Shown here: one piece after another, positions 12,305-18,704 of the stretch
Layout of the letters: each line of letters begins with the position of its first letter
How positions within the stretch are numbered: position 1 is the first letter of the stretch
Origin: Bdellovibrionota bacterium FG-1
GTDB taxonomy: Bacteria; Bdellovibrionota; UBA1018
Direction of reading: 5' to 3'
DNA length: 64,000 nt
NCBI GenBank assembly: GCA_051382295.1
Contig: JBBCAW010000062.1
Coordinates: 50,040 to 114,039, forward strand
The notes under the pieces: generated by a model
The model's database searches: none
The model's input: the letters and a program-made list of their open reading frames with translations, nothing else
What the model was told of the DNA's origin: nothing
Program-made: the position numbers and the translations under genes

Positions 12305-13105
12305 CTACACCTCAAAAAAATCCATCAGCACGGCAAAAGGGGCTTGTTCTGGCGACTTTTCGACGATTGGCTCGATATCTTGAAGGAGTTGAAGCATCAT
12401 CGAGCGAATTCGCTCGGCATCGACGCGCGAGATTCCAAACAGGGCCGAATAGTGAAGGGGCTGACCTTTCGGACTTTCGATCGCACTGAGAGCTTTGACC
12501 CGCCAATTGCTATGGTGACGCGGAAGAAGGGGCGATGAAGTCCCGAGATGAATTCGACCGGTCCCAATGGAAAGCTTGCCGCCCTTTTCTTTAACCAGGC
12601 CTCGTTGAATCAAGAAACGGAGCCCCTTTTCAACCAGCTCTGGAGCAAGACCTAACCGCTCAATGATGGCTTCGCTAGTTTGAGTGCCCGGCAACGCGCT
12701 CAGAATGTGAATCGCGCCATACCACCAGGCACTGTAATAAGTGACCTGATCGTCTAAACCGAGTTCGTTTTTAACCCCGATGCGCTCTTTGACTAACTGG
12801 CGTTTTTGCAAAATGGCGTCGGCCTGCGCTTGAAAAAATCGTTCGAGTTCTTTGGACCCTGCTTTGTCTTTTTGAACCAAGAGCATGAAGAACTGACTTT
12901 CTTCAGCGGTGTGCCTGAAAAACTCTGAGGTTTTTAGCGCATGTTCCAGACTCAATTGCGACTTTCCACTCAGGACCTGCGACACAAACGAGGTCTGGCA
13001 CTGAAGATGTCGCGCAAGGCGCGCCCGTCCCCCTTTTTGCAGGGTCTCTTGGTTCATTTGGGCGATGAGGTAGTCTCGATAATGATTAAAATCAAAGAGG
13101 GCCAT
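12305..13105 (-). CDS. TIGR02147/DUF4423-type HTH protein (putative regulator)
   Basis: LFDFNHYRDYL start, HTH (SFVSQVLSGK), YYSAWWY, winged helix, C-terminal MDFFEV. Confidence 0.8.
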   Translation of the reverse strand: MALFDFNHYRDYLIAQMNQETLQKGGRARLARHLQCQTSFVSQVLSGKSQLSLEHALKTSEFFRHTAEESQFFMLLVQKDKAGSKELERFFQAQADAILQKRQLVKERIGVKNELGLDDQVTYYSAWWYGAIHILSALPGTQTSEAIIERLGLAPELVEKGLRFLIQRGLVKEKGGKLSIGTGRIHLGTSSPLLPRHHSNWRVKALSAIESPKGQPLHYSALFGISRVDAERIRSMMLQLLQDIEPIVEKSPEQAPFAVLMDFFEV

Positions 13106-13205
13106 ATTAAGTAATTACTACCTGATTGCGTTAATTTTTCACTACATTTATCTATCGAGCTTAAAAAATTCAAAGCAAACTCATTTCAAGAAGAGCATTG
13201 ACCAC

Positions 13206-14258
13206 TTGGATAACAGGGGAGAAAACACGATTATGGGCATCTGGAAAAATGGATTGGGAATCGCAGCAGTTTCACTGGGCCTTTTGATGGGGCTAAACGC
13301 TCATGCGGGCGTAGGGACAAGTGGCGGGGGTGCCGTCGCGGTTTGTCGAGATGCAGCTGGACATATTCAATCGGCAGAATTACTAGATCTGTACGAGGGC
13401 AAGGTCAGGTTTGGAATGACGATTGATCAGTCCGCAACCGACCCAAACCAGGGGTTTTTACGGGCGGTCTCTCGCTTTGTAGACCAACCTTATTACGGAG
13501 CCTTGATCCGCGAATCCGCCAAAGACGTGCTCGAACGAATGGTGTTTTTGCCACCAGGAGTGGGACTTTCGCCGGGAGTGGACCTCGGAAACGACTACGG
13601 TGTGGTGATTCCAGATGGGTGTCGCCTCGAGTATGTGGGCTACTACGAATCGGATGGGACGCTCAAGGTTGCGCAGCCCGTTTACCGAGCCTTAAGTGCG
13701 ACTGATCGCGCGGCTTTTGTGATCCACGAAGCGGTTTACAAAATCGCGAGAGAATACCTCGGCCAAACCGATTCGAGCCATTCACGGAAATTTACGGCGG
13801 CCCTTTTTGCGGGGAATAATTCGGAGGGGGATCTGATTCATTTGGCGCAGGAGGTGTTTCCGATTCAAGAAGGTGATTCTCTCATTGTTCTTCCCAAAAA
13901 CCTTTCTCATTCAATTGAGGTGATCCAAACCCCACAAGACAGCCAGGTTCTAATACACTACAGTCTGGACTGTTTCGCGGATACTAAAGCCACCGAATTA
14001 ACCCCATTAGAAAGTACGGATTGGGTAGGTAAAGGAAAGAATAAGTTAACCCTCAATCCGACCCAACAATGCCGACGGATCGAATTTAGGCTCTATGCGA
14101 AAGAGATGGGTTATCACTCTGTCGCTTATAATTTTCAGGTCTTTTATGGGGGAAACTTGATCGATATCGGCGAAGTAGCTGCCAATCTTTCGACCTATGC
14201 CCACGTCATCCGTTTCGCCACCAACGTTCAAGTCCCCGCCATCCCAACCCTGCCATAG
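13206..14258 (+). CDS. Secreted hypothetical protein with N-terminal AGxxxSGGG motif
   Basis: Signal peptide ending AHA then GVGTSGGG, ELLDLYEG, HEAVY; true start probably ATG 13233. Confidence 0.8.
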   Translation: MDNRGENTIMGIWKNGLGIAAVSLGLLMGLNAHAGVGTSGGGAVAVCRDAAGHIQSAELLDLYEGKVRFGMTIDQSATDPNQGFLRAVSRFVDQPYYGALIRESAKDVLERMVFLPPGVGLSPGVDLGNDYGVVIPDGCRLEYVGYYESDGTLKVAQPVYRALSATDRAAFVIHEAVYKIAREYLGQTDSSHSRKFTAALFAGNNSEGDLIHLAQEVFPIQEGDSLIVLPKNLSHSIEVIQTPQDSQVLIHYSLDCFADTKATELTPLESTDWVGKGKNKLTLNPTQQCRRIEFRLYAKEMGYHSVAYNFQVFYGGNLIDIGEVAANLSTYAHVIRFATNVQVPAIPTLP

Positions 14259-14333
14259 GGATCACCCAACCGAAGCGCGTCCTCCACCATGAGGGCTCCG
14301 GGTTGACTAGCACGCTGTACCCGCGAACCTCCC

Positions 14334-14471
14334 CTAGCTTCGGTCTAAGTGACTGGAAACGAAATCGATAAGAAAAACCAGAAGTTTCCAGATCAGTAAA
14401 AATAGTGCGGATCTGAACTTCAGTTTTTCATACCGACGCCGAGAAGAATAACATGTTCTTTTATTCTTCAT
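14334..14471 (-). CDS. 45-aa basic/hydrophobic peptide, putative type I toxin: MKNKRTCYSSRRRYEKLKFRSALFLLIWKLLVFLIDFVSSHLDRS
   Basis: GAGAGGTG Shine-Dalgarno just upstream of ATG; frame conserved in all three copies. Confidence 0.8.
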   Translation of the reverse strand: MKNKRTCYSSRRRYEKLKFRSALFLLIWKLLVFLIDFVSSHLDRS

Positions 14472-14475
14472 AAGG

Positions 14476-14514
14476 CACCTCTCTTTCTATCAGGAAGGGA
14501 GGTGTTTTCCTTTT
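14476..14514 (+). terminator. Rho-independent terminator of putative antisense RNA, copy 1 (same sequence in copies 2 and 3)
   Basis: CACCTCTCTTTCT-ATC-AGGAAGGGAGGTG is fully paired with G-U on the + strand and followed by TTTTCCTTTT. Confidence 0.65.
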
Positions 14515-14548
14515 CACGCGCGCCTCGGTTGGGCTGGGTGGATCCTAA

Positions 14549-14564
14549 AGCAAGGTCAGTGCCG
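14549..14564 (-). promoter_or_regulatory. Sigma54 -24/-12 promoter, copy 1
   Basis: CGGCACTGACCTTGCT, GG-N10-GC spacing. Confidence 0.75.
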
Positions 14565-14898
14565 GAAAAAGATGCAAAAAATGGCGATTTTTGAGCAAGA
14601 TCTGTTCGAATTTCGGATCAAAGTGGGGAATCCGGACTTCATTACTGAAACTTCAGTAGGCAGTGCTCATCACCGCCGCTGCGGCTCACTATTACCCACA
14701 TGAGGAGTTTGCGCATTTGTCACTTCGAGATTCGGGAGTCCCAGATCGTTTCGTGAACGTTTTAAATGCACAAGCACCTGCAATGGGTTAACAAACTCAC
14801 TTAAAACCTGAAACGTTTCCTCCTGTCCACTTACCAAGGGTGAGCTAAGCGCCTAATCATTCAATAACTATTTGTTTTAATAATGATTTACATACCTA

Positions 14899-14927
14899 TT
14901 GCACCATACAATATTGTATCATACTAT
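14899..14927 (+). promoter_or_regulatory. Sigma70 promoter with palindromic operator in spacer
   Basis: TTGCAC-N17-TACTAT; ATACAATATTGTAT palindrome at 14906-14919; ATG 7 nt downstream. Confidence 0.65.
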
Positions 14928-14934
14928 ATATCTC

Positions 14935-15471
14935 ATGGACGTTCATACAACTCTCAATCAGTTCGATGAATACCTCGCACAAAGAGGACAAGCCTTTGAA
15001 GCCGTTGTCATTGGTGGCGCTGCCCTCATCGTCATGGGGATCATCAGCCGGGATACGATTGACGTAGATTGCCTTGATCCAAAAATTCCAGATGAAATTC
15101 TGAAACATGCAGCAAATTTTAGAACATCCGCTCCCAATCTTAGACTCCATGAAAAATGGATCAACAATGGTCCAGATTCTCTAATTCGAGACTTACCCCA
15201 TGATTGGCGAACCAGGCTCGTTCCAATTTTTAAGGGAGAATCACTTCATCTTCTTACCTTAGGTCGACTGGACCTCCTAAAAACAAAACTCTTTGCCTTT
15301 TGTGATCGTGATCAAGACCTGCAAGATTGTATGGCATTTAAACCTACTCAAAAAGAACTAGACTCCTGCATAGATTGGGTTTCACAGCGAGATGGAAACC
15401 CAAACTGGCCCGAAAATGTTCGCCGCCATTTTGAGATCCTCAAAAAGAGACTAGGTCATGATCAAACCTAA
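14935..15471 (+). CDS. DUF6036-like nucleotidyltransferase (AbiEii/type IV toxin-like)
   Basis: VIGGAAL...RDTIDVD, WINN, DLLKTKL, RDQDLQD; start moved to ATG 14935. Confidence 0.8.
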   Translation: MDVHTTLNQFDEYLAQRGQAFEAVVIGGAALIVMGIISRDTIDVDCLDPKIPDEILKHAANFRTSAPNLRLHEKWINNGPDSLIRDLPHDWRTRLVPIFKGESLHLLTLGRLDLLKTKLFAFCDRDQDLQDCMAFKPTQKELDSCIDWVSQRDGNPNWPENVRRHFEILKKRLGHDQT

Positions 15472-16141
15472 CCATGACCTTTCACTCAATCAAAAACTTG
15501 CCTCAATCGGCTTTCGAATCAATTATGATTCGCTCGGGTTGAAGTTAAAAAATCTTTCGTTACTAGAAAATGCCGACCTTGAAGAAACCCTCATTCACGC
15601 AGCCTTTGAAGCAAAAACTGATTTTAGAACTCTATCCATTCTCTTAAGCTGGATTACCGTGCACGCCGATTACGTGATTGTTGAGAAATTTTTAAAAAAA
15701 ATAAAATTATTTGAAAAGATCCATGGGGTAAACCGCGTTCTTGATCTCATGGCCGCGCACGCCGTAATAAACGGCAGCCATAAATGGAAAAAAGCCATCC
15801 GAACGCATGTGAAACGTCCCGAGTTTCCAGTCGACCCCGAATTACTTAAAACTTCAATTGAATTTCAAGGGGCCGATGATACACTCAAGAAATTTGGAAT
15901 TTTAATTCCGAAAAAACTCCTCCGAATTCGAACCAGCGATGTTCTACAGCCAGCAGAACTTTCCACCATTAACCCCCAATATCGCAACCGGCTTCTTTTT
16001 GGCGCTTCCTGGCGCTCCGACATTATTACAGCCATTGAGGCTGGAATAAAAAACCCCAATCAGATCTCCAAAATGCTGGGCTGCTCCTATGAGCCCGCCT
16101 ATCGCATCTTCAAAGATTACCGAGCGGCACATGGAATCTAA
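15458..16141 (+). CDS. Hypothetical protein with C-terminal HTH; probable partner of the upstream nucleotidyltransferase
   Basis: Overlaps the upstream gene; C-terminal NPNQISKMLGCSYEPAYRI. Confidence 0.7.
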   Translation: MIKPNHDLSLNQKLASIGFRINYDSLGLKLKNLSLLENADLEETLIHAAFEAKTDFRTLSILLSWITVHADYVIVEKFLKKIKLFEKIHGVNRVLDLMAAHAVINGSHKWKKAIRTHVKRPEFPVDPELLKTSIEFQGADDTLKKFGILIPKKLLRIRTSDVLQPAELSTINPQYRNRLLFGASWRSDIITAIEAGIKNPNQISKMLGCSYEPAYRIFKDYRAAHGI

Positions 16142-16240
16142 AACAACAACTTTTTTGTAGTTTTAAAATCACCCAACCGAGCCGCGTCCTCCGCCATGAG
16201 GGCTCCGGGTTGACTAACACGCTGTACCCGCGAACCTCCC

Positions 16241-16378
16241 CTAGCTTTGGTCTAAGTGGCTGGAAACGAAATCGATAAGAAAAACCAGAAGTTTGCAGAT
16301 CAGTAAAAATAGTGCGGATCTGAACTTCAGCTTTTCATACCGATGCCGAGAAGAATAATAGTACTTCTTATTCTTCAT
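16241..16378 (-). CDS. 45-aa peptide, copy 2: MKNKKYYYSSRHRYEKLKFRSALFLLICKLLVFLIDFVSSHLDQS
   Basis: Same SD, start and stop as copy 1; synonymous differences (AAA/AAG, AGT/AGC). Confidence 0.8.
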   Translation of the reverse strand: MKNKKYYYSSRHRYEKLKFRSALFLLICKLLVFLIDFVSSHLDQS

Positions 16379-16455
16379 AAGGCACCTCTCTTTCTATCAG
16401 GAAGGGAGGTGTTTTCCTTTTCACGCGCGCCTCGGTTGGGCTGGGCGTATCTCAA

Positions 16456-16471
16456 AGCAAAGTCAGTGCCA
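16456..16471 (-). promoter_or_regulatory. Sigma54 -24/-12 promoter, copy 2
   Basis: TGGCACTGACTTTGCT, near-consensus. Confidence 0.8.
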
Positions 16472-16690
16472 TGAAAAGGCGCAAAAATCGGCGATTTTCA
16501 AGCAAAAGCTGTTCAGACTTCGGATCACGACGGGGAATCCGGACTTCATTGCTGAAACTTCAATAGGCAGCGCTGATCACCGCCGCTGCGGCGCTAGGGT
16601 TTTGATCACTATCTAAAATCACCCAACCGAGCCGCGTCCTCCGCCATGAGGGCTCCGGGTTGACTAACACGCTGTACCCGCGAACCTCCC

Positions 16691-16831
16691 CTAGCTTTGG
16701 TCTAAGTGGCTGGAAACGAAATCGATAAGAAAAACCAGAAGTTTGCAGATCAGTAAAAATAGTGCGGATCTGAACTTCAGCTTTTCATACCGATGCCGAG
16801 AAGAATAGTACTTGGACTTCTTATTCTTCAT
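16691..16831 (-). CDS. 46-aa peptide, copy 3: MKNKKSKYYSSRHRYEKLKFRSALFLLICKLLVFLIDFVSSHLDQS
   Basis: Differs from the other copies by a frame-preserving 3-nt insertion. Confidence 0.8.
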   Translation of the reverse strand: MKNKKSKYYSSRHRYEKLKFRSALFLLICKLLVFLIDFVSSHLDQS

Positions 16832-16908
16832 AAGGCACCTCTCTTTCTATCAGGAAGGGAGGTGTTTTCCTTTTCACGCGCGCCTCGGTTGGGCTGGGCG
16901 GATCCCAA

Positions 16909-16924
16909 AGCAAAGTCGGTGCCG
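16909..16924 (-). promoter_or_regulatory. Sigma54 -24/-12 promoter, copy 3
   Basis: CGGCACCGACTTTGCT. Confidence 0.75.
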
Positions 16925-17062
16925 TAAAATATGCCAAAGACAGGCAAATTTCCGGCGAGAGCTGTTCAGAATTCGGATCGGAGTGGGGAATCCGGACTTC
17001 ATTGCTGAAACCTCGATAGCCGGCTCTACTCACCACCACTGCGGCTCACTATGACCCACCTA

Positions 17063-17111
17063 AAAACCGGGTTATAATTGCATTGACATTACACTTATAA
17101 CCCGGTTTTAT
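17063..17111 (+). promoter_or_regulatory. 15-bp inverted repeat operator overlapping a sigma70-like promoter
   Basis: AAAACCGGGTTATAA (17063-17077) and TTATAACCCGGTTTT (17095-17109) flank TTGACA at 17083. Confidence 0.65.
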
Positions 17112-17118
17112 AAAAGAA

Positions 17119-17483
17119 ATGCGCTCATTTACGCTCGAGATCGCTTCTTCCTATTTTCCGCAAAAAACTCAAACAATGGCCCGCCATTTGCTTTTGGGGA
17201 CCTCGCACGTGAACTCATCGAACTTTCCGCTATACTGAATCAACCAACCGTGGCCGAATTTGCAAAAAACACCGGCGTACAAGCAAGACGAATTCAAAAT
17301 CACTTAGATGCTTTAGAAGATCTTTTTGTCCTTTATCGGATAGAATTTTGTTCTTTGTCGGTTGGAAAAACCCGATACATTCCCTTTGAGTGCGGCGTTG
17401 TTGAGCATTTCAAGGCAACCGATGAGCCCAGTCAAAATCTAAAACCTGGAGTAAACGTCCTGCCCTGGCGGGAAATTTTCTAG
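17119..17483 (+). pseudogene. Internally deleted, frameshifted remnant of an AAA/DUF4143-type ATPase
   Basis: Off-frame N-terminal piece HLRSRSLLPIFRKKLKQWPAICFWGPR (pre-Walker A) joined to the wHTH-like piece AEFAKNTGVQARRIQNHLDALEDLFVL and a VLPW C-terminus. Confidence 0.55.
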
Positions 17484-17505
17484 AGGTTTCAACGAAGACA
17501 TAATA

Positions 17506-18336
17506 ATGAAAACCCACATTCGAAACCCCCTCAAACCCAAAGCGCTTTCCAAAAAGCTTCTCCTTTCGGTTCAATTCAAAAACGTTGAAGCCTCATCGAG
17601 TGGCTGGCTTGGGGATTTTGATAAATACACGTTCAAAGACCAAAACGGGTCCGAATACCTCATTAAGGTCGGCCAGGACAAAGCTAAAAACCTTCCCGAA
17701 GTTGAGTTTTTAAGTAATCAAATATCTAGCATCCTTGGAGTCGAAGTCGCGGATTTTGGTCTATGGACCGTCGATGGAAAAAAAGCGTTTGCAACCAAGG
17801 ATTTTCTTAAAAATAATCCGAAAATCCCAGAAACCGCCGGCCTCATCCATTTTAAACGCTATTTCAAAACCAGCGGTCGCTGGGCCTGCGAAGACATCCT
17901 CGACCTCTTAAAAAAACAATCGAGCAGGTCAGCGCACGATATTCGACAATTCATCCGCCTGACCTTGGTCGACGCCCTTATCGGCAACACCGACCGCCAT
18001 GCCTATAATTTAGCCTTTATCCACGAAGACAGTCATCTTTACCTGAGTCCCATTTATGACACCGTCAGCGTTTTCGTGGCCGTCGATCGAGACCCATACG
18101 AGGATTTTATTGACACCTGCAAAATCGGCACAAAAGATCAGGATACGGCGAGATTCGAAGACTATCTAACAGAGTTTAAACGGCTAGGGTTCGCAAAGGA
18201 GGTCACGGTCGTCTTAACGGCCATGACGTCCAAAAAAAATAAAATTTTTGCCTTGATTCAAAAGTCAAAACTTCCCCTCATCAAAAAAGAGTACTGGTGC
18301 GACCGAATCAATAAAACAATCAAGAGCCTCAAATGA
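17506..18336 (+). CDS. HipA/HipT-like kinase toxin
   Basis: YLIK, EFLS, DALIGNTDRHAYN, LSPIYD; lacks the N-terminal Couple_hipA subdomain. Confidence 0.88.
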   Translation: MKTHIRNPLKPKALSKKLLLSVQFKNVEASSSGWLGDFDKYTFKDQNGSEYLIKVGQDKAKNLPEVEFLSNQISSILGVEVADFGLWTVDGKKAFATKDFLKNNPKIPETAGLIHFKRYFKTSGRWACEDILDLLKKQSSRSAHDIRQFIRLTLVDALIGNTDRHAYNLAFIHEDSHLYLSPIYDTVSVFVAVDRDPYEDFIDTCKIGTKDQDTARFEDYLTEFKRLGFAKEVTVVLTAMTSKKNKIFALIQKSKLPLIKKEYWCDRINKTIKSLK

Positions 18337-18704
18337 AAAAAATTCAGGTCACCCTTGAGACCCAACTTAAGAAAAAGATCGTCGGATTTTTATATCGGCG
18401 ACGAGCCGCATGGATATTCGAATACGACCCGTCGTGGATAAATAGCGGCGTTAATATTGACCCCCAATTCGAAAAGAAACCAGGACCCCAACCTTTTAAA
18501 GAATTGCCGGAGTTTTTTTCAGACAGAATCCCGCCACTGGGGTCTCAGATGAGAGGCGCCTACGGAAAAGCATGGAAACTTAATCACTCGGAGCATGACG
18601 AAATGTCACTTCTAGTTACCGTCGGCCATCGGGGACCGACGAACTATGTCTTTTACCCCATCGGGTTCACCCCAGGACTTTGGGCAGAGCTGGAAAAACG
18701 CTAA
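18333..18704 (+). CDS. HipA N-terminal domain (HipS-like) protein
   Basis: VGFL...WIFEYDPSW...LPEFFSDRIP; ATGA-coupled to the kinase. Confidence 0.8.
   Translation: MKKIQVTLETQLKKKIVGFLYRRRAAWIFEYDPSWINSGVNIDPQFEKKPGPQPFKELPEFFSDRIPPLGSQMRGAYGKAWKLNHSEHDEMSLLVTVGHRGPTNYVFYPIGFTPGLWAELEKR

Follow-up and report, generated by a model that had tools for sequence, protein, structure and literature searches.

The stretch of DNA considered here, hereafter the window, comprises 64,000 nucleotides (nt) of contig JBBCAW010000062.1 (positions 50,040 to 114,039, forward strand) from Bdellovibrionota bacterium FG-1. It carries three direct copies, named A, B, and C, of a unit of about 440 nt. Each unit probably represents a stand-alone gene that encodes a membrane peptide similar in kind to type I toxins, 41–53 amino acids (aa) long in the family as a whole, whose transcription would be gated by sigma-54, an alternative sigma factor. 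This reading, drawn from comparative sequence analysis, is given a probability of about 0.6. Toxicity of the peptide, considered separately, is given slightly better than even odds.

The three copies were delimited with a repeat search and a MAFFT alignment, in which mean column identity is 88%. Copies B and C stand in tandem with a spacing of 450, and two genes lie between A and B. Divergence is uneven along the unit, the initial ~280 nt being almost the same in all three copies and the final ~150 nt less alike. A preliminary description of this DNA had reported three diverged copies of a repeated unit, each with a minus-strand open reading frame (ORF) of 45–46 codons preceded by a Shine-Dalgarno (SD) sequence. 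These features are borne out: the copies measure ~440 nt, the ORFs have 45, 45, and 46 codons, and the sequence AGAGAGGTG stands six nt 5' of the ATG in each of them. The same description had noted a 3-nt indel as the only one in the ORF, synonymous changes of the AAA/AAG and AGT/AGC types, and a basic N-terminus accompanied by a hydrophobic stretch. The indel is seen at alignment columns 214–217, both types of synonymous change occur among the window copies, and both peptide features are present in the translated ORFs.

The unit is not confined to the window. In the source genome (4.44 Mb in 158 contigs, 97.7% complete), the unit was matched nine times at the DNA level and a profile of the peptide family 25 times. 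The profile matches correspond to two fragments and 23 full-length ORFs, one of which ends in an aberrant C-terminus. Copies are also grouped in three arrays, each of three, in agreement with the multicopy, tandem organization proposed beforehand. Extending the search to relatives, as had been suggested, gave profile matches at E ≤ 0.01 in 27 of 116 genomes belonging to the same order; of these matches, the weakest four are doubtful. In a phylum-wide sample, 22 of 401 genomes match at E ≤ 1e-5; all 22 belong to this same order of Bdellovibrionota, and none of the 309 sampled genomes of the phylum beyond it matches the profile. Public contigs matching a single-peptide query are labelled uncultured Bdellovibrionia, Bacteriovoracaceae, Bdellovibrio sp., or “Deltaproteobacteria”, to which a protein search adds Bdellovibrionota and Oligoflexia.

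Altogether, 90 distinct units were gathered from 20-odd genomes, and two more matches lack a recognisable start. An ORF of 41–53 codons is kept in 83 of the 90 units and is shortened or extended in the other seven (21–38 or 58 aa). Chance is excluded by the further copies in the genome (nine DNA and 25 profile matches) and by the retention of the ORF in 83 units. Codon-position entropy is 1.09/0.90/1.28, and along the hydrophobic stretch the second position is almost fixed while the first and third vary. The median pairwise ratio of nonsynonymous to synonymous substitution rates (dN/dS) is 0.41, with 99.4% of 2446 pairs below 1. The coding status suggested from the window copies is thus upheld, and that the gene is real and coding is hardly in doubt. 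Decayed copies were also seen in the source and related genomes (units L009, L011, L083, L093, L064, and L058); they have an ORF of 20–38 aa or a frameshifted 58-aa C-terminus, and their promoter and 5' untranslated region (5' UTR) remain recognisable.

The family consensus reads MKNN..YYSYRIRLEKLKQKTW, then LLIVLAKLLVFLALLV..YL. The N-terminal part is basic, with +6 as the median net charge, and is followed, from near residue 24, by one hydrophobic 17-mer of median hydropathy 2.30 and a tail of about five residues; the peptide has one transmembrane helix with a conserved Lys/Arg. The three window copies form a diverged branch of the family (…YEKLKFRSALFLLICKLLVFLIDFV…). With 41–53 aa in 83 of 90 units, the product has the format of a small (<60 aa) membrane peptide encoded on its own short messenger RNA (mRNA).

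The promoter region occupies the diverged ~150 nt of the unit and holds a sigma-54 type −24/−12 element that is conserved through the family. The consensus for such promoters is TGGCAC-N5-TTGCW. In the source genome, GGCA(C/T)-N5-TTGCT, which is also the pattern of the position matrix, lies on the coding strand 85–101 nt upstream of the ATG in all units bar one variant copy and one fragment. Across genomes, the strict −24/−12 motif occurs on the sense strand between −130 and −65 from the ATG in 64 of 84 units, against 0/84 on the opposite strand, 1/84 at −250 to −185, and 0/85 within the ORF. Units devoid of the strict motif mostly have one-mismatch variants or an insertion in the 5' UTR. When both strands of the source genome are scanned, the strict pattern has 85 matches, 19 of them in front of family ORFs. 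According to the matrix and the RNA alignment, the predicted start, 11–12 nt past the −12 GC, is the first base of the 5' arm of the mRNA described below. In addition to the −24 GG and −12 GC elements, the host has the corresponding machinery: the source genome encodes sigma-54 (rpoN; one Sigma54_DBD match, 219 bits) and enhancer-binding ATPases (31 Sigma54_activat matches, about 25 of them strong). With good confidence, then, the units are predicted to carry a sigma-54 promoter. With this element, regulation has to be seen differently: rather than being constitutively transcribed, the toxin would be enhancer-gated.

Upstream of the promoter, the motif TCCGRA is enriched at −45 to −85 from the −24 element, being present in 26 of 66 units compared with 9.6% of random 150-nt segments, and it is tentatively viewed as part of an enhancer. 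A palindrome TCCGAA-N-TTCGRA is found in units L003, L005, and L098, with a near-match in L004. In three units of one other genome (L048, L068, and L069), an inverted TCCGRA/TTCGGA cluster was seen by eye immediately downstream of the 3' arm; this would fit an orientation-independent enhancer.

The anatomy of the mRNA was deduced from an alignment of 68 RNAs. For copy A, the predicted mRNA begins at the predicted sigma-54 start and stops where the 3' arm does. A closing helix, H1, joins the first 14 nt of the mRNA to its last 14 nt. Pairing in it reaches 96.8%, 13 of its 14 pairs show compensatory changes (one pair, for example, is GC in 38, AU in 21, and CG in 5 RNAs), and the two arms co-vary between subfamilies. 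The covariation score of the whole structure was reached by 0 of 500 shuffles, and slid partners were only 31–55% paired. Among H1 cells, 111 G.U stand against 5 C.A; therefore, the pairing is selected on the sense RNA and not on the DNA or the antisense strand. Such 14-bp closure of the 5' end on the 3' end is of the kind found in the hok/aapA1 class. Past H1, at least three T occur within the next 6 nt in 43 of 68 RNAs, and this U-rich tail suggests that the closing helix may double as a terminator.

A small hairpin, H2 (GTAG…CTAC), is 86.5% paired with GC/UA swaps. In H3, an anti-SD sequence, CTCCTTTC, pairs with GAAAGGAG of the 13-nt extended SD AAGGAGGTGATCC, which we take to be complementary to the 3' end of 16S rRNA. 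This helix is 87.5% paired, with CCCCC/GGGGG co-variation, and over the 68 RNAs the mean unpaired probability of the SD 5-mer is 0.10 in silico; the predicted fold therefore sequesters the SD. A second SD-like GGAGG stands right after the stop codon in most units. Within the ORF, codons 2–4 pair with the YY codons (78% paired), LEK with VFL (82%), and W with AK (74%). In the 3' UTR, a hairpin with the conserved loop GGTACAGC, H5, is 68% paired in the MAFFT alignment and is probably real. Of the 68 RNAs, 50 have another hairpin there, of 4 bp or more, and GGGTACAGC is a nearly invariant unpaired motif. Copy B folded alone gives a z-score of −2.6 on the sense strand. RNAalifold on the MAFFT alignment of the 5' UTR returned a register-shifted SD helix, which was rejected, and on that of the 3' UTR no structure. 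The earlier proposal of a tightly folded mRNA gains support from the 14-bp closing helix and the SD hairpin, and both closing helix and SD lock are very likely real.

The candidate antisense RNA is less clear. On the antisense strand, a sigma-70-like element, TTTTC(C/A/T)-16-(T/A/C)ATAAT, occurs in a fixed register in 41 of 79 units, its −10 box lying within codons ~7–12. In the window copies, the predicted antisense hairpin is terminator-like (dG −22.2, z −5.25), and where the sense strand has its two C.A mismatches, this 17-bp hairpin has G.U pairs. Family-wide, H3 has 56 C.A cells and 34 G.U cells. Synonymous codons are skewed in the antisense-promoter region: GAA:GAG is 67:5, AAA:AAG is 66:10, and two Tyr codons have TAT:TAC ratios of 47:9 and 47:7, against 14:37 for the C-terminal Tyr. 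The first codon of each of these pairs accounts for about 58% genome-wide. Against this, the skewed codons also sit in mRNA helices, and the sense strand too has a promoter-like peak, in 19 of 79 units; the evidence for an antisense promoter is therefore ambiguous. A short cis-antisense RNA starting from codons 4–6 and running across the start codon and the SD, as the Sok, Rdl, and IsoA1 antisense RNAs do, has somewhat less than an even chance of existing. The units had been likened to type I toxin-antitoxin systems with their cis-antisense RNA. The membrane-peptide gene, the tandem multicopy organization, and the folded mRNA of that analogy stand, and the cis-antisense RNA is only hinted at by the 41 promoter-like sites and the hairpin.

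From these elements a mechanism may be proposed. The sigma-54 promoter, ~90 nt upstream of the ATG, would be silent until an activated enhancer-binding ATPase acts on it. It would then start an mRNA of ~280 nt sealed by the 14-bp 5'–3' helix and followed by a U-rich tail, in which the extended SD would be locked by the upstream 16S-like anti-SD and the ORF folded in three further helices. Synthesis of the peptide would thus pass two gates, enhancer-dependent transcription and an mRNA that stays translationally inert until the anti-SD is opened or removed; the short cis-antisense RNA over the start codon and SD is a possible third lock. The primary transcript would be inert, and its activation would need a further step. 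Speculatively, the A-rich loop that separates anti-SD and SD could be cut, reminiscent of the 5' processing of TisB mRNA, or else the second GGAGG just past the stop codon could compete. Once made, the peptide would enter the inner membrane and damage or depolarise it. A broader and rather unlikely version supposes an order-wide regulon, in which up to ~23 membrane-toxin genes per genome would be fired jointly via sigma-54 by one enhancer-binding protein. Predatory-type bacteria would thereby have a programme of self-intoxication set off by a signal, be it for dormancy, lysis, or a prey-phase switch. The virtual lack of basal activity at sigma-54 promoters, together with the sealed, locked mRNA, would then replace or supplement an RNA antitoxin, and the helix joining the transcript ends would also serve as transcription terminator.

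Several points weigh against the sigma-54-gated toxin. Helices H2–H7 were drawn by hand from the sequences, so that the slid-partner controls are biased in their favour, and for H5 an anchor-based test was level with its shuffle control (5.91 vs. 5.69 pairs). Paralogues and related genomes are not independent, and counts and shuffle controls accordingly overstate the number of independent events and their significance; moreover, all family genomes are uncultured assemblies. Removal of the 3' arm in silico leaves the SD closed (unpaired probability 0.097 at full length, 0.098 without the arm, and 0.103 without H6 and the arm). Activation by 3' trimming of the hok/aapA1 type is therefore not predicted, this result being a purely thermodynamic prediction. 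On the transcriptional side, the presence of TCCGRA in only 26 of 66 units leaves the enhancer ill-defined. Another enhancer candidate, the palindrome GTCC-N7-GGAC, was rejected: it has 46 sites in the source genome where ~68 are expected, and none near a unit. No activator gene adjoins the units in the flanks examined. Finally, a divergent small RNA (sRNA) of the IstR/OhsC type finds no support, as complementarity of the upstream region to the mRNA is at chance level beyond the overlaps due to tandem arrays.

In the most serious competitor, the units encode sigma-54-regulated small inner-membrane proteins with a non-toxic physiological role (modulation of a transporter, a sensor, or the envelope-stress response, for instance) and no antitoxin, the structured mRNA serving only stability and tight translational control. 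In its favour, no antitoxin sRNA signal beyond chance was found in the upstream region, the promoter is signal-dependent, and purifying selection at dN/dS 0.41 fits any functional peptide; all the evidence concerns gene structure rather than toxicity. What this explanation accounts for poorly is the presence of 23 diverged paralogues in one genome, in tandem arrays, the patchy spread among relatives (27 of 116 genomes), and the sealed mRNA with its locked SD. Multicopy arrays, patchiness, and sealed or locked mRNAs are hallmarks of type I toxins (ldr, ibs, hok, aapA) and are unusual in regulatory small proteins, which are mostly single-copy. A non-toxic role is consequently held to be unlikely.

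The remaining alternatives give the peptide a lesser part. The transcript could be a dual-function or mainly regulatory RNA, whose 16S-like anti-SD and conserved loops act in trans on mRNAs or ribosomes, with a secondary role for the peptide. Conservation at the RNA level is indeed very strong, including the unpaired GGGTACAGC of the 3' UTR, constraints on synonymous sites are strong, and multicopy sigma-54-driven RNA genes are known in the Qrr sRNAs. However, the ORF is open in 83 of 90 units, its second codon position is conserved along the hydrophobic stretch with dN/dS at 0.41, a strong extended SD stands at the right distance in essentially all units, and the anti-SD is paired internally, all of which make this alternative very unlikely. 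Even less probable is a non-autonomous mobile element resembling a miniature inverted-repeat transposable element (MITE), whose terminal inverted repeats would mimic the 5'–3' helix and whose ORF would be incidental. The units are short, multicopy, and often located at contig ends, and inverted repeats form each end of the ~280-nt core. But the terminal pairing tolerates 111 G.U and only 5 C.A, hence selection on one RNA strand, and the arms co-vary between subfamilies rather than hold one transposase site. Moreover, every unit includes a promoter as well as a coding ORF that is under purifying selection, plasmid and phage collections gave no match, and no target-site duplications were seen, though no formal test was made. 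The MITE-like and non-coding readings were rejected on the grounds of one-strand RNA pairing, arm co-variation, ORF retention, and the dN/dS of 0.41. The sigma-54-gated membrane peptide of type I toxin kind is thus retained as the preferred reading, and its predicted features in the window are collected in Table 1.

Table 1. Coordinates, in the window, of the three units and of their predicted elements.
Feature	Copy	Position	Strand	Description
Repeat unit	A	14261–~14703	minus (ORF strand)	repeat search and MAFFT
Repeat unit	B	16168–16617	minus (ORF strand)	repeat search and MAFFT
Repeat unit	C	16618–~17059	minus (ORF strand)	repeat search and MAFFT
ORF	A	14334–14471	minus	45 aa, basic N-terminus and one transmembrane helix; family profile E 2.8e-28
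ORF	B	16241–16378	minus	45 aa
ORF	C	16691–16831	minus	46 aa, one codon more
Sigma-54 type promoter	A	14549–14563	minus	GGCACTGACCTTGCT, −24 GG, −12 GC
Sigma-54 type promoter	B	16456–16470	minus	GGCACTGACTTTGCT
Sigma-54 type promoter	C	16909–16923	minus	GGCACCGACTTTGCT
TCCGRA motif pair, tentative enhancer	A	14603–14640	minus	motif enrichment
TCCGRA motif pair, tentative enhancer	B	16510–16547	minus	motif enrichment
TCCGRA motif pair, tentative enhancer	C	16963–17000	minus	motif enrichment
Predicted mRNA	A	14261–14538	minus	~278 nt; 5' arm 14517–14538, 3' arm 14261–14279
Predicted mRNA	B	16168–16445	minus	~278 nt; 5' arm 16424–16445, 3' arm 16168–16186
Predicted mRNA	C	16618–16898	minus	~281 nt; 5' arm 16877–16898, 3' arm 16618–16636
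SD/anti-SD hairpin	A	14476–14504	minus	SD AGAGAGGTG 14476–14484, anti-SD CACCTCCCTTCC 14493–14504
SD/anti-SD hairpin	B	16383–16411	minus	SD 16383–16391, anti-SD 16400–16411
SD/anti-SD hairpin	C	16836–16864	minus	SD 16836–16844, anti-SD 16853–16864
Sigma-70-like promoter, predicted	B	16332–16359	plus	TTTTCA-16-AATAAT, in codons 7–16; generic promoter scan
Candidate cis-antisense RNA	B	16366–16427	plus	~55–60 nt, inferred; 17-bp hairpin 16379–16415, then CCUUUUC

The units are located near a small toxin-antitoxin-like islet (DUF4423, DUF6036, and split HipA genes) amid ordinary genes, namely rpsF, tatC, a cyclophilin gene, and a major facilitator superfamily transporter gene. A gene for a DUF4423 protein (12305–13105), with a weak N-terminal YdaS-like/helix-turn-helix match, adjoins the repeat region. 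Between copies A and B, a DUF6036 nucleotidyltransferase gene (14899–15471) overlaps a 227-aa gene (15458–16141) with a weak C-terminal helix-turn-helix match; this two-gene cassette, 14899–16141, looks like an insertion into a one-time three-copy tandem array. On the other side, a HipA-like kinase is divided between two overlapping genes whose order is unusual, with the HipA_C gene (17506–18336) ahead of the Couple_hipA gene for the HipA N-terminal part (18333–18704), and a 77-aa ORF (17250–17483) stands ahead of them. Just past copy C and upstream of these HipA-like genes, a near-perfect 23-nt inverted repeat (17063–17085/17087–17109, 87% complementary) overlaps a sigma-70-like promoter, ATGACC-16-TATAAT (17051–17078). 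This repeat could be an operator.

As to novelty, none of nine members matches any Pfam family at E up to 10, Hok/Gef included, and 42 members had no meaningful match in NCBIfam, PHROGs, or PADLOC. In Rfam, cmscan of positions 13000–18500 (E up to 1) returned only a chance mir-500 match outside the units, and tblastn against plasmid and phage collections gave no match. The statement that the peptide is not of a recognised family thus agrees with all these profile libraries. ESM Atlas contains unnamed clusters only (score 0.80), and two large protein searches returned 91 proteins or clusters each, nearly all of 40–53 aa, every name given in one of the searches being “hypothetical protein”. Literature searches combining type I toxin-antitoxin with Bdellovibrio, judged by titles and abstracts, found nothing related. 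The type I toxin literature that was searched does not mention sigma-54, and no relevant paper came up for RpoN or sRNA in these bacteria. The design is that of aapA1 and hok, but sequence membership in known families fails; the units may therefore be classed as an unnamed, type I-toxin-like family, the putative sigma-54 gating being its new element.

Type I toxins have been described in few lineages, chiefly enterobacteria, Firmicutes, and epsilonproteobacteria, and homology searches are notoriously poor at finding them. A large family with a well-supported anatomy now appears in Bdellovibrionota, where our literature searches found no described type I system. The mRNA plan of hok and aapA1, with sealed ends and a locked SD, recurs in it with unrelated sequence, which argues that this design is a general way to silence a membrane poison. 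Were the regulon version true, sigma-54 control would be a first for a type I-like toxin family, and so, possibly, would the lack of a dedicated antitoxin. The family raises the questions of whether enhancer-dependent transcription, almost free of basal leak, can substitute for an RNA antitoxin, and of which signal switches on up to two dozen such genes. Its ~90 natural variants also offer material for studies of co-transcriptional folding and long-range RNA pairing.

Comparison with known systems places the units among several models. With the Qrr sRNAs of Vibrio, they share the presence of several paralogous short RNA genes, each with its own sigma-54 promoter. The Qrr genes are multicopy, sigma-54/LuxO-dependent, and answer to one activator. 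In contrast to Qrr, which are non-coding, the RNAs described here carry a conserved ORF under purifying selection. Among type I systems, tisB/istR-1, dinQ/agrB, and zorO/orzO resemble the units through a regulated promoter or 5' processing of the toxin mRNA. Transcription of the tisB and dinQ toxins is tied to LexA, whereas the units would receive their signal through a sigma-54 enhancer-binding protein and not a repressor; in addition, the upstream region of the units has no divergent sRNA complementary to the mRNA beyond chance. With hok/sok, the units share a membrane peptide of ~50 aa, a compact, stable mRNA that has local 5'-end hairpins, and the presence of several copies in the chromosome. 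The hok mRNA is closed by the 5'–3' pairing fbi/tac. The transmembrane helix of Hok is N-terminal, whereas here it is C-terminal to a long basic region, and the promoter is of sigma-54 type. No mok-like overlapping frame was seen in the family units, although no formal search was made.

For ldr/rdl and ibs/sib of Escherichia coli, the antisense RNAs are demonstrated and the promoters are of the sigma-70 type. Like these loci, the units, a few hundred nt long, are repeated in tandem and each contain a small hydrophobic ORF of their own (PMC2887945), and they have no sequence relation to them according to the profile libraries. Another counterpart is aapA1/IsoA1 of Helicobacter pylori, which likewise encodes a small membrane peptide, is chromosomal and multicopy, and has an mRNA of similar length; the full-length aapA1 mRNA measures 253 nt, has long-range 5'–3' pairing, and sequesters its SD (PMC5416894). 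The same paper mentions that the primary TisB mRNA stays inert until processing of its 5' UTR. The units differ from aapA1 in their sigma-54 type promoter and in the length of the peptide, 41–53 aa vs. 30 aa. Furthermore, aapA1 is activated by 3' trimming, whereas the SD lock of the units is a local hairpin that stays closed in silico when the 3' arm is removed. The antisense RNA of aapA1 covers the translation start, and it is at this very position that a promoter-like site is found in 41 of 79 units.

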